This document shows, in pieces, positions 50,442-52,087 of a DNA stretch of 64,000 nt (the stretch's first letter is position 1; each line of letters starts with the position of its first letter). Below the pieces are notes generated by a model, which was not told where the DNA came from, did no database searches, and saw nothing but the letters and a program-made list of their open reading frames with translations. The translations under genes and the position numbers were made by a program. Source of the stretch: Escherichia coli (GTDB taxonomy: Bacteria; Pseudomonadota; Gammaproteobacteria; Enterobacterales; Enterobacteriaceae); NCBI RefSeq assembly GCF_003018115.1, contig NZ_CP027457.1. One strand, 5' to 3'.

Positions 50442-50657
50442 ATGACGCTTGAGCGAATCAGCGCCTTTATCACGTATTGCATCGCCGTCGTGCTGGCCTG
50501 GCTGGGCGATTTGTCCATCAAGGATGCCTCAACGCTGGGCGGCCTGATGATTGGTGTGCTGATGCTGGCTATCAACTGGTACTACAAACACAAAGCCTAC
50601 CAGCTTCTGCGCGACGGGCAGATCTCGCGGGAGGATTATGAATCCATCAATCGTTAA
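50442..50657 (+). CDS. Holin/pinholin
   Basis: 71-aa protein with two hydrophobic helices and charged C-terminus, directly upstream of the endolysin. Confidence 0.7.
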   Translation: MTLERISAFITYCIAVVLAWLGDLSIKDASTLGGLMIGVLMLAINWYYKHKAYQLLRDGQISREDYESINR

Positions 50658-51150
50658 ACGCTGCCTTGTCGGGGCCGTGCTGGCTATTGCTGCCACGCTG
50701 CCGGGTTTTCAGCAGCTTCACACCTCCGTGGAGGGGCTGAAACTGATTGCCGATTACGAAGGCTGTCGTCTGCAGCCGTATCAGTGCAGCGCGGGTGTCT
50801 GGACAGACGGCATTGGTAATACATCTGGCGTCATTCCGGGCAAAACCATTACGGAACGACAGGCAGCGGAAGGGCTGATCTCCAACGTGCTACGTGTGGA
50901 GCGGGCACTGGAAAAGTGTGTGAAGCAACAGCCGCCGCAGAAGGTGTATGACGCGGCGGTGTCGTTTGCCTTCAACGTGGGAACGGGCAATGCCTGCAGT
51001 TCCACGCTGGTGAAATTGCTCAACCAGCGGCGCTGGGCGGATGCGTGCCGACAGTTGCCGCGCTGGGTTTATGTAAAAGGTGTGTTTAATCAGGGGCTGG
51101 ATAACCGCCGAGCGCGGGAGATGGCCTGGTGTTTACAGGGAGCAAACTGA
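50638..51150 (+). CDS. SAR-endolysin (GH24 lysozyme with N-terminal signal-anchor-release helix)
   Basis: Hydrophobic N-terminus CLVGAVLAIAATLPG then EGLKLIADYEGCRLQPYQCSAGVWTDGIGNT, matching the Glu/Asp/Thr region of T4-type lysozymes and remembered P1 Lyz. Confidence 0.8.
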   Translation: MNPSIVKRCLVGAVLAIAATLPGFQQLHTSVEGLKLIADYEGCRLQPYQCSAGVWTDGIGNTSGVIPGKTITERQAAEGLISNVLRVERALEKCVKQQPPQKVYDAAVSFAFNVGTGNACSSTLVKLLNQRRWADACRQLPRWVYVKGVFNQGLDNRRAREMAWCLQGAN

Positions 51151-51151
51151 A

Positions 51152-51529
51152 ATGAAAAAGAAAGTAATTAGCGGGCTGTTTCTGATGTTATGGATGGCGC
51201 TGTTAATCGCAGCAATGGCGTATCCGCAGGGGATTTTTCCGGTACTGGCAGCGTCCGGCGTTTGGGTAGCCTGTTTGCTGACATGGGCGGTAATTCCGGT
51301 AGCACTGGCTGCGTTAATTCAGAATGGCCCGCTCTGGCAGGAGTTAAGGGCATCTTTGCTGAAGACAATTACCCGAAAAGAAAACGTATTTATCAGTTGG
51401 GTGATGCGATTGCTGATTGTTGTAAGTCTCGCATGGACGGGGTGGGCTATTACCCTGGTCTTTTATCTACTGACCGTTATTGCCTTCTGGATCACCCGTA
51501 ATCAGATGGCGCAACAGGTAGCCGCATGA
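51152..51529 (+). CDS. LysA-like membrane protein (lysis timing)
   Basis: Start MKKKVISGLFLMLWMALLIAAMAYP; several TM helices; position after the endolysin. Confidence 0.6.
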   Translation: MKKKVISGLFLMLWMALLIAAMAYPQGIFPVLAASGVWVACLLTWAVIPVALAALIQNGPLWQELRASLLKTITRKENVFISWVMRLLIVVSLAWTGWAITLVFYLLTVIAFWITRNQMAQQVAA

Positions 51530-51954
51530 ACCGGTTGCTGCTGGTTGTGCTGGCGTTATTACTGGCGGCGCTGGGCTGGCAGACGTGGCGGCTGGCTGAT
51601 GCCAGCCAGACCATCAGCACGCAGGCAAACGAGCTGCAGAGCAAAAGCCAGGCACTGGCAAAGAGCAACAGCCAGCTTATCAGCCTGTCCATTCTGACTG
51701 AAACCAATAACCGGGAGCAGGCGCGGCTCTATGCCGAAGCAGAACAGACCAGCGCACAGCTGAGACAACGACAACGCCGGATCGAGGAACTGAAACGTGA
51801 GAACGAGGATTTACGCCACTGGGCTGATACTCCTTTGCCTGCTGACATTATCCGGCTGCGGGAACGTCCGGCACTCACCGGAGGTGCAGCTTACCGTCAG
51901 TGGTTGTCCGCGAGTGACGCCGTGTCGGCTGGAGCAGGCAGCACCGCGCACTAA
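51526..51954 (+). CDS. i-spanin (Rz/LysB-like)
   Basis: N-terminal TM helix then coiled-coil-like periplasmic domain. Confidence 0.7.
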   Translation: MNRLLLVVLALLLAALGWQTWRLADASQTISTQANELQSKSQALAKSNSQLISLSILTETNNREQARLYAEAEQTSAQLRQRQRRIEELKRENEDLRHWADTPLPADIIRLRERPALTGGAAYRQWLSASDAVSAGAGSTAH

Positions 51955-52087
51955 CGGTGATCTGAATGCGTTGCTGGATGAAACGGAGGCCGCCTGGGCG
52001 GTCTGTGCAGACAAAGTGGACATGATTATTGCGTGTCAGGAGCGAAACAGTGAACAAACCACAATCCCTGCGCCACGCCCTCAATAA
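51797..52087 (+). CDS. o-spanin (Rz1/LysC-like lipoprotein), overlapping the i-spanin gene in another frame
   Basis: Lipobox LLTLSGC; Pro-rich; starts inside lysB and extends past it. Confidence 0.65.
   Translation: MRTRIYATGLILLCLLTLSGCGNVRHSPEVQLTVSGCPRVTPCRLEQAAPRTNGDLNALLDETEAAWAVCADKVDMIIACQERNSEQTTIPAPRPQ

Follow-up and report, generated by a model that had tools for sequence, protein, structure and literature searches.

Gene organization of the cassette and its prophage

Within the 64,000-nucleotide stretch of Escherichia coli DNA analysed here (the window), five late genes on the plus strand make up a lysis cassette with the following genes and internal features.

50442-52087, plus strand: five-gene lysis cassette, closely spaced late genes of a P2-like prophage in the E. 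coli chromosome
50442-50657, plus strand: holin gene, 71 aa, HP1-family class II, single ATG start
50457-50507, plus strand: holin TMD1, residues 6-22, ISAFITYCIAVVLAWLG, from hydropathy
50532-50582, plus strand: holin TMD2, approximately residues 31-47, with G34-x3-G38, from hydropathy
50638-51150, plus strand: predicted SAR endolysin gene, 170 aa, GH24 muramidase of the P1 Lyz subtype (PF00959, phrog_7, 1XJT)
50638-50709, plus strand: predicted SAR segment, residues 1-24, MNPSIVKR followed by uncharged C9-F24 (CLVGAVLAIAATLPGF), from hydropathy
50758-50805, plus strand: catalytic motif E41-G-C43-x6-C50-x5-T56 (E-8aa-C-5aa-T), from alignment
51152-51529, plus strand: lysA homologue, 125 aa, four hydrophobic segments (phrog_162, NF038378)
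51526-51954, plus strand: lysB, i-spanin, 142 aa (TIGR03495, phrog_89)
51535-51579, plus strand: LysB N-terminal membrane anchor, residues 4-18, mean Kyte-Doolittle value 2.86
51797-52087, plus strand: lysC, o-spanin, 96 aa, GTG start (NF038368, PF23793)
51797-51859, plus strand: LysC lipoprotein signal peptide with lipobox L18-S19-G20-C21, from sequence motif
51797-51954, plus strand: lysB/lysC overlap, 158 nt, with lysC in the +1 frame

Every feature that a preliminary description had assigned to the cassette was found in the sequence exactly where it had been placed, and the proposed content of a small holin, a SAR endolysin and overlapping spanins was borne out, but the lysA homologue at 51152-51529 had been overlooked. 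The late genes follow the P2 order L-X-(lysis)-R-S in full synteny, and because this synteny is joined by matches to PF00959, PF16080, TIGR03495 and NF038368, the identity of the cassette is far beyond chance. The prophage is P2-like and belongs with the Wadgaonvirus-like Peduoviridae, and the cassette, which is already known, is the standard five-gene lysis module of a P2-like prophage that is very common in E. coli. It is present in 774 of the 5,426 complete E. coli genomes, is annotated in hundreds of genomes, and has genes that RefSeq routinely names. The remainder of the interval yielded little. Seven minus-strand open reading frames and one alternative plus-strand frame had no match in PHROGs, Rfam returned no RNA family in the cassette (its one sub-threshold chance match lies outside), and consensus scans for internal promoters and terminators gave counts near the shuffled expectation, with none credible.

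LysB and LysC are predicted to form a P2-type two-component spanin of overlapped architecture. LysB scores 174 bits against the equivalog model TIGR03495 (cut-off 92.75), matches phrog_89 with an E value of 6e-46 and is 33% identical to P2 LysB. LysC scores 124 bits against NF038368 (P2_Rz1; cut-off 27) and 57.3 bits against PF23793 (cut-off 27), and it is 40% identical to P2 LysC, with which it shares its length and cysteines 21, 37, 43, 70 and 80. It is identical at 96 of 96 positions to an open reading frame in Escherichia phage 500465-1. As had been proposed, the o-spanin gene begins inside the i-spanin gene in another frame and runs beyond it. Its GTG start is preceded by GAGGA, it reaches 133 nt past the end of lysB, and its last 38 nt lie within tail gene R (start 52050). 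The lipobox LLTLSGC occupies residues 15-21 of LysC, in agreement with the earlier reading, so that the signal MRTRIYATGLILLCLLTLSG would directly precede the predicted lipidated cysteine, C21. The public records of the closest cassettes shorten lysC to 38 or 57 aa, and an lysC that is called too short, with the lipobox missing, is a recurrent annotation error.

The prophage may be defective, because its integrase is split by a frameshift into open reading frames at 34341-34868 and 33829-34353. The cassette could be intact in sequence and yet silent, playing no part in lysis of this strain today, and frameshifted endolysin-LysA fusions in many related prophages indicate that decay of the module is common. 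Nevertheless, all five lysis open reading frames have their full length and share 97-100% identity with their counterparts in phages that were induced or recovered as virions, and the window shows intact open reading frames for the repressor and for the replication, capsid and tail genes. Moreover, a loss of excision is compatible with late-gene expression and lysis after induction, and we therefore consider a silent cassette unlikely.

The holin and the LysA homologue

The holin contains two hydrophobic segments, for which the membrane topology is predicted. The second carries a glycine face (G34-x3-G38) and is followed by an NWYYKHK motif and a charged C-terminus. Direct BLASTP comparisons were marginal (HP1 Hol, E 0.065; EssD, E 0.001), and profile methods were therefore needed. 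With these, the holin scores 36.7 bits against PF16080, the HP1 holin family (cut-off 28.8, E 4e-9), and matches phrog_20 with an E value of 2e-26. In its family alignment G34 is conserved in at least 90% of sequences and Y48 is invariant, and TMD2 aligns with TMD2 of EssD. Such profiles reveal a remote homology of the holin to phage 21 S and HP1 Hol, the two pinholins that have been studied by experiment, and it is itself probably a pinholin. A dual-start antiholin of the S21 kind was considered and rejected: the upstream ATG (50429) lies 13 nt before the holin ATG and is out of frame. Relatives of the holin start with MGLNMER or MGLTMEK.

The mean Kyte-Doolittle value of TMD1 is 2.12, higher than that of HP1 Hol (1.32) and of EssD (0.59), and it falls inside the range of endolysin SAR domains (1.60-2.14). 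This value, together with a match to PF04971 (P21 holin S) of 23.2 bits that stays under the cut-off of 26, would suit a canonical large-hole holin of class II, with the SAR endolysin triggered simply by depolarisation, as P1 Lyz can be with LydA. Canonical holins are able to work with SAR endolysins (PMC9025707, PMC6116005). However, comparison of the holin family profile with EssD by hhalign aligned both helices with those of this pinholin (probability 92.6%, E 4e-7), the corresponding comparison with HP1 Hol gave 89% (E 2e-6), and all three holins fall in phrog_20. The family matched above its cut-off, PF16080, has a prototype that behaved as a pinholin experimentally (PMC7312051), and diverged relatives of the present holin have a weakly hydrophobic, Ser/Thr/Gly-rich TMD1 like that of S21. 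The placement of a holin and a SAR endolysin in one operon is, in addition, the usual pinholin arrangement (PMC9025707). These observations make a large-hole type improbable and favour a pinholin, although the pinholin gating model may not be directly transferable to this holin, because its TMD1 is far more hydrophobic than those of EssD and HP1 Hol.

The LysA homologue is likewise most readily recognized by profiles. It scores 122 bits against NF038378 (cut-off 40) and matches phrog_162 with an E value of 2e-43, a family matched also by P2 LysA (2e-67) and EtG LysA (6e-54), while direct BLASTP against P2 LysA is marginal (E 0.016). Fused homologues carry the Pfam domain PF28015, named 'LysA', and the position of the gene, between the endolysin gene and lysB, is that of lysA in P2. 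In annotations based on PHROGs the protein is mislabelled 'endolysin', and other records call it 'membrane protein'. The family is kept beside two unrelated holin/endolysin pairs, namely Y/K in P2 and, in both this prophage and Erwinia phage EtG, a SAR lysozyme coupled with an HP1-type holin, and it is absent from HP1. This distribution leaves open a role for LysA as a general regulator of lysis timing, acting on membrane energisation, SAR endolysin release or the spanins, rather than as a holin-specific antiholin, a proposal that we regard as doubtful.

The endolysin and the proposed course of lysis

The endolysin gene overlaps the holin gene by 20 nt and has GGAGG upstream of its ATG. Its product scores 137 bits against PF00959 (E 4e-40), matches phrog_7 with an E value of 4e-68, and shares 166 of 170 residues with its counterparts in phage 500465-1 and KP12. 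The best match of solved structure is P1 Lyz (1XJT, E 2e-26). An AlphaFold model (mean pLDDT 85.8) likewise has full-length, active P1 Lyz as its top Foldseek match, with a TM score of 0.83 over the full length, followed by full-length R21 (3HDE). The earlier proposal of a P1-Lyz-like GH24 enzyme is thereby upheld. Its likeness extends to P1 Lyz rather than equally to phage 21 R, with which it had also been compared: the enzyme is predicted to be a GH24 SAR endolysin, specifically of the P1 three-cysteine subtype and not of the phage 21 R subtype.

The cysteines and the catalytic residues carry this distinction. GH24 SAR endolysins are defined by the catalytic motif E-8aa-D/C-5aa-T (PMC4640515, PMC9239132), and the triad, whose absence would have spoken against such an enzyme, was found as E41-x8-C50-x5-T56. 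The same pattern occurs in P1 Lyz (E42, C44, C51, T57), HP1 Lys and EtG Lys, and RrrD, of the R21 type, has Val and Asp where the two motif cysteines stand. C9, C43 and C50 align with C13, C44 and C51 of P1 Lyz and with C11, C49 and C56 of HP1 Lys. A point against this reading is that the SAR cysteine stands at the very start of the hydrophobic stretch (KR-C9), as opposed to its mid-membrane position in P1 (C13).

SAR domains are recognized by 2-3 basic residues ahead of an uncharged, weakly hydrophobic stretch in which Gly, Ala, Ser and Thr are abundant (PMC9239132). In the present enzyme K7 and R8 precede 16 uncharged residues, 44% of which are Gly, Ala, Ser or Thr, with a mean Kyte-Doolittle value of 2.11; the SAR domains of P1 Lyz, HP1 Lys and RrrD range from 1.60 to 2.14, and the spanin anchors from 2.86 to 3.12. 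Along with the cysteine aligned to the SAR cysteine of P1 Lyz, these properties support the N-terminal SAR helix that had been proposed.

A signal-peptidase site is conceivable at an AIA motif followed by Ala (A16-I17-A18 before A19), a small-x-small motif after a short hydrophobic core, and the preliminary description had taken a predicted cleavable signal peptide as evidence against a SAR domain. This comparison proved non-discriminating. The -3/-1 rule points just as readily to AxA-type sites in P1 Lyz and the R21-type RrrD, and SignalP calls experimentally supported SAR domains signal peptides (PMC7312051). It is very improbable that the N-terminus is a cleavable Sec signal peptide and the enzyme a secreted, soluble and otherwise controlled one: SignalP-type tools do label such segments signal peptides (PMC7312051) and the presumed SAR domain of T4 RI reportedly proved to be a cleaved signal peptide (PMC8385771), but like motifs occur in uncleaved P1 Lyz (AIA before V) and R21/RrrD (AIA before I and AIA before S; PMC6116005), just 7 hydrophobic residues precede the AIA motif, and in the AlphaFold model the N-terminal helix is predicted to pack into the body, as it does in active, full-length P1 Lyz (1XJT). 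In addition, the cysteine within the segment is aligned across the W, EtG, HP1 and P1 enzymes, which are only 34-62% identical, and retention of the segment in the mature protein is the sole sensible reading of this conservation.

A pinholin-SAR mechanism is well supported for this cassette by homology, and its pinholin part rests on the relationship of the holin to phage 21 S/EssD and HP1 Hol. It had been proposed as an implication of the SAR endolysin, and that part of the argument does not hold, because P1 also pairs a canonical holin, LydA, with Lyz (PMC9025707). In experiments, HP1 Hol behaved as a pinholin and HP1 Lys as a SAR endolysin that depends on Sec (PMC7312051). If homology to P1 Lyz, to phage 21 and to HP1 is taken as a guide, lysis could proceed as follows. 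Sec would export the endolysin, and the weakly hydrophobic segment at its N-terminus would keep it inactive and anchored in the inner membrane, with Cys50, at the catalytic position, probably held in a disulfide by Cys43. The holin would trigger at a set time and depolarise the membrane, probably through small pinholes, whereupon the SAR segment would exit the bilayer and Cys9 would be freed to take over Cys43, releasing Cys50. Such disulfide isomerisation is reportedly the mechanism by which P1 Lyz is controlled. The SAR segment would refold into the enzyme body and murein degradation would begin. The spanin complex of LysB in the inner membrane and the outer-membrane lipoprotein LysC would then disrupt the outer membrane, and LysA, a predicted four-helix membrane protein, would probably tune the timing, as in P2. 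Nothing in the sequence contradicts a P2-like cassette of the SAR/pinholin kind.

Comparison with known lysis systems

The pinholin-SAR paradigm is provided by S21/R21 of phage 21 and by EssD/RrrD of E. coli DLP12. As here, a two-helix holin precedes a GH24 SAR endolysin and a two-component spanin follows the endolysin, and profile comparison relates the two kinds of holin. Unlike the present endolysin, R21 and RrrD are without regulatory cysteines. The S21-type holin, for its part, has a dual start and a TMD1 much less hydrophobic than that found here. The spanin genes differ as well, since the o-spanin gene of the phage 21/DLP12 type is embedded within the i-spanin gene, whereas here the two are overlapped.

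Among solved structures, P1 Lyz (1XJT/1XJU) is closest to the endolysin in sequence and fold alike, with 38% identity. All seven cysteines of P1 Lyz have counterparts here, including the SAR cysteine, the cysteine adjacent to the catalytic Glu and that of the second triad position. The SAR stretch of 16 uncharged residues compares with one of 20 in P1 Lyz and places its cysteine at the cytoplasmic edge, and an 11-residue deletion after the NVG motif of the present enzyme is absent from P1 Lyz. In P1 itself, lyz is unlinked to the main holin (PMC9025707).

The hol-lys genes of HP1, a Haemophilus phage of the Peduoviridae (Hpunavirus), encode an experimentally studied pair of pinholin and SAR endolysin. 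HP1 Hol and the present holin both match PF16080, a kinship found at the profile level only. HP1 Lys shares the E-G-C...C...T motif and the SAR cysteine, with just 34-37% identity to the present endolysin. As here, the holin and endolysin genes of HP1 overlap and a LysB-like gene lies downstream (PMC7312051); unlike here, lys and the LysB-like orf25 of HP1 have no LysA gene between them.

The closest cassettes are those of Escherichia phage 500465-1 (Wadgaonvirus, NC_049342), the P2-like clone of Klebsiella phage KP12 (OM835953) and Klebsiella phage 4LV2017, together with those of many P2-like prophages of Klebsiella and E. coli. This type has the same five genes, order and overlaps, with 97.5-98% nucleotide identity over 1.9 kb, and its proteins are 95-100% identical, differing by a few amino-acid substitutions; for 500465-1 and KP12 the identity of the cassette proteins is 97-100%. 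Close or related cassettes are thus already described in the literature: the published account of KP12 assigns its cassette to the P2 type, with overlapped spanins and a SAR endolysin that resembles P1 Lyz, and the 98%-identical KP12 endolysin has been purified and spot-tested (PMC9902359). As lysins, members of the endolysin family have some applied interest, and the significance of the cassette otherwise extends little beyond correct annotation.

The comparison with P2 itself defines what has been exchanged. The lysis module occupies the identical position between tail genes X and R, and L, X and R of P2 are 40-61% identical to their prophage counterparts. P2 LysA, LysB and LysC belong to the same families as those described here, with LysC of 96 aa in both. 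In P2, lysC (8202-8492) likewise has its start within lysB, in the +1 frame, and reaches 38 nt into R (start 8455), and the overlap geometry of lysB and lysC has been described for that phage (PMC3091744). By contrast, P2 Y, a class I holin of 93 aa and three helices (PF04550, phrog_175), is unrelated to the present holin; BLASTP between them gives E 0.001 with 28% identity over 54 aa, and their Pfam and PHROG families differ. P2 K is equally unrelated to the present endolysin (BLASTP E 0.21, with different Pfam and PHROG families). It is soluble, as the preliminary description had it, belongs to another family (phrog_90) and is without a hydrophobic segment. Relative to P2, the holin-endolysin pair alone is exchanged, and LysA, LysB, LysC and the overlaps are P2-like. 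In all likelihood, then, this is a P2-like late-operon cassette in which Y and K have been swapped for an HP1-family holin and a P1 Lyz-type SAR lysozyme and lysA, lysB and lysC have been retained. It offers a clean example of modular exchange in a conserved phage operon, in which a holin-endolysin pair of the soluble-endolysin/large-hole type was replaced jointly by one that is probably of the SAR/pinholin type, while LysA and the overlapped spanins stayed P2-like.

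Gene organization and prophage setting

By the families that its flanking genes match, 50442-52087 belongs to the late genes of a P2-like prophage, and its five lysis genes are packed with hardly any spacing between them. The host chromosome is that of E. coli: positions 20000-24000 of the window match chromosomes from O169:H41 strains at 100% identity.

Late genes in and around the lysis cassette
47963-49021: P2 major capsid N (by synteny with NC_049342, Escherichia phage 500465-1)
Cassette flank: small terminase M (family match)
Cassette flank: head completion L (PF05926)
50235-50438: tail protein X (PF05489)
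50442-50657, + strand: holin, 71 aa
50638-51150, + strand: endolysin, 170 aa; ATG preceded by GGAGG
51152-51529, + strand: lysA homologue, 125 aa
51526-51954, + strand: lysB, 142 aa
51797-52087, + strand: lysC, 96 aa; GTG start with GAGGA 8 nt upstream
From 52050: tail completion R (PF06891)
Cassette flank, with R: S (family match)

The holin and endolysin genes overlap by 20 nt and lysA and lysB by 4 nt. lysC is shifted to the +1 frame with respect to lysB; the two genes have 158 nt in common, after which lysC runs on for 133 nt and stops 38 nt into R. The preliminary description, in which an o-spanin gene starts inside the i-spanin gene in another frame and runs beyond it, was exact in coordinates and content, the lysA homologue alone having gone unmentioned. 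No further ORF matching phage protein families was found on either strand of 50442-52087, no RNA family matched across the cassette interval, and no credible promoter or terminator was found inside the cassette.

The lysis cassette is already known, and there is nothing new in the finding. Identity over the 1.9-kb region amounts to 97.5-98% with Escherichia phage 500465-1 (Wadgaonvirus), with a P2-like clone filed under Klebsiella phage KP12, with Klebsiella phage 4LV2017 and with numerous phages derived from Klebsiella prophages, and the cassette proteins are 95-100% identical to those of related phages. At a coverage of at least 80%, the cassette is present in 774 of 5,426 complete E. coli genomes, in which RefSeq labels its products HP1 family phage holin, lysozyme, DNZ54_00345 family protein, LysB and LysC. 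A published account of KP12 assigns its cassette to the P2 type and describes an SAR endolysin resembling P1 Lyz together with overlapped spanins (PMC9902359).

Elsewhere in the prophage, the integrase (33829-34868, - strand) consists of two overlapping ORFs, with an Int_N domain at 34341-34868 and a catalytic domain at 33829-34353; this split indicates a frameshift, which may prevent the prophage from excising. At the left prophage edge, a 348-aa ORF without a Pfam match (32793-33839, - strand) has the integrase on one side and, on the other, an AIDA-type autotransporter of the host (27787-32502, 1571 aa); this ORF could be prophage cargo. At 42357-44138 (+ strand), next to the portal gene Q (44179-45207, - strand), lies a gene whose 593-aa product bears a GmrSD_N/DUF262 domain (E 2e-22) and resembles the PADLOC NsnA model (E 8e-31); in P2-like phages this location is the variable hotspot for cargo and defence genes. 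Among the early genes are one for a D12-class N6-adenine DNA methyltransferase (37383-38300, + strand; E 3e-75), which immediately precedes the replication gene gpA, and one for a DinI-like protein (40991-41296, + strand).

The predicted SAR endolysin

The endolysin carries a phage lysozyme (GH24) domain (E 4e-40), and its nearest solved structure is P1 Lyz (1XJT, E 2e-26), followed by R21 and DLP12 RrrD. Its AlphaFold model (mean pLDDT 85.8), in which the N-terminal helix packs into the enzyme body, most resembles full-length active P1 Lyz (1XJT, TM 0.83 over 176 columns) and then full-length R21 (3HDE), in keeping with the T4/P1-Lyz-like GH24 enzyme proposed earlier. A missing catalytic triad, which would have spoken against that proposal, is not the case, since E41, C50 and T56 fit the E-8aa-D/C-5aa-T motif (PMC4640515, PMC9239132).

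The N-terminus, MNPSIVKR followed by 16 uncharged residues (CLVGAVLAIAATLPGF), has two basic residues, 44% Gly/Ala/Ser/Thr and a mean Kyte-Doolittle hydropathy of 2.11. This value lies within the 1.60-2.14 of the N-terminal segments of P1 Lyz, HP1 Lys (Haemophilus phage HP1) and RrrD, and the SAR segment already proposed is thereby supported; the stable membrane anchors of LysB proteins have means of 2.86-3.12. A predicted cleavable signal peptide would be weak as a refutation of the SAR reading, because P1 Lyz and R21-type RrrD also carry AxA-like motifs in their SAR segments, and the corresponding segment of HP1 is labelled a signal peptide by SignalP (PMC7312051). Cleavage is better countered by the Cys in the N-terminal segment here, which aligns across enzymes only 34-62% identical.

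That residue, C9, is one of three regulatory Cys that the endolysin has in common with P1 Lyz, HP1 Lys and the Lys of Erwinia phage EtG; the others are C43, beside the catalytic Glu, and C50, in the second position of the triad. RrrD and R21 have none of the three. On this alignment, the endolysin belongs to the P1 Lyz subtype. In this subtype, the SAR Cys reportedly undergoes disulfide exchange after membrane release, freeing the active-site Cys, and the same exchange may operate here.

Endolysin-LysA fusion ORFs of 276-296 aa make up 39 of the 120 best endolysin cluster representatives. At the commonest junction, one G is lost from a GGG run close to the endolysin gene's 3' end (window 51116-51118; 2973-2980 and 563-570 in the fusion loci L008 and L009), removing the invariant C165. 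The same deletion recurs in NCBI assembly GCA_951658385.1 and in an SRA assembly of independent origin; in GCA_951658385.1, M and L are fused as well, so the deletion may reflect either real decay or a systematic homopolymer error.

The holin

The pinholin-SAR mechanism of the preliminary description is not implied by the SAR endolysin alone, since in P1 a canonical holin, LydA, also acts with Lyz (PMC9025707, PMC6116005); it is the homology of the holin that supports it. The holin contains two hydrophobic segments, at residues 6-22 and at about 31-47, ends in a charged C-terminus and scores above the cut-off for the HP1 holin family PF16080 (36.7 against 28.8 bits) and just below it for the phage 21 holin S family (23.2 against 26). 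It matches phrog_20 (E 2e-26), as do EssD, the phage 21 S-type holin of DLP12 (E 2e-33), and HP1 Hol (E 9e-10). Only 40 relatives were found among 1.8 billion representative proteins scanned, several with an S21-like first helix rich in Ser/Thr/Gly. A family profile of 18 members aligned with both helices of EssD (hhalign probability 92.6%, E 4e-7) and with HP1 Hol (89%, E 2e-6), which has been shown experimentally to kill without lysis, to release no beta-galactosidase and to be needed for phage release. This homology supports a predicted pinholin, with the reservation that TMD1 is more hydrophobic (mean hydropathy 2.12) than in EssD (0.59) or HP1 Hol (1.32). A dual-start motif was rejected, the upstream ATG at 50429 being out of frame.

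LysA, the spanins and comparison with P2

The lysA homologue has four hydrophobic segments and matches phrog_162 (E 2e-43), as do P2 LysA (E 2e-67) and EtG LysA, as well as NCBIfam NF038378; fused homologues bear Pfam PF28015 'LysA'. P2 lysA is annotated in the P2 record as non-essential and influencing lysis timing, and its product is considered an antiholin (PMC3091744). The phrog_162 label 'endolysin' spreads into phage records, P2 RefSeq included.

LysB exceeds the cut-off of equivalog model TIGR03495 (174 against 92.75 bits), and LysC that of NF038368 P2_Rz1 (124 against 27 bits), with a further match to PF23793 and a lipobox at LSG|C21. In two related records, lysC is annotated as fragments without the lipobox, of 38 aa (4772-4888 in NC_049342) and 57 aa (3215-3388 in OM835953, the KP12 clone); yet each sequence contains the GTG-start ORF intact, at its full 96 aa.

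Overall, the observation is confirmed and its reading supported with three refinements, namely the P1 subtype, a pinholin call resting on the holin's own homology, and the missed lysA. Identity to the P2 counterparts is 40-61% for L, X and R, 40% for LysC and 33% for LysB. P2 LysC is of equal length, shares its start with LysC here (MRTR/MRTK) and has Cys at the same positions (21, 37, 43, 70 and 80), and the overlapped lysB/lysC geometry is that of P2 (PMC3091744). In contrast, neither the holin nor the endolysin shows significant similarity to P2 Y and K, and both belong to other families; K has no hydrophobic segment, in agreement with the soluble gpK of the preliminary description. Because of this split, the cassette is, from its sequence relationships, a P2 frame in which the holin-endolysin pair has been exchanged, and a pair of the same type is found in HP1 and EtG, both likewise Peduoviridae.
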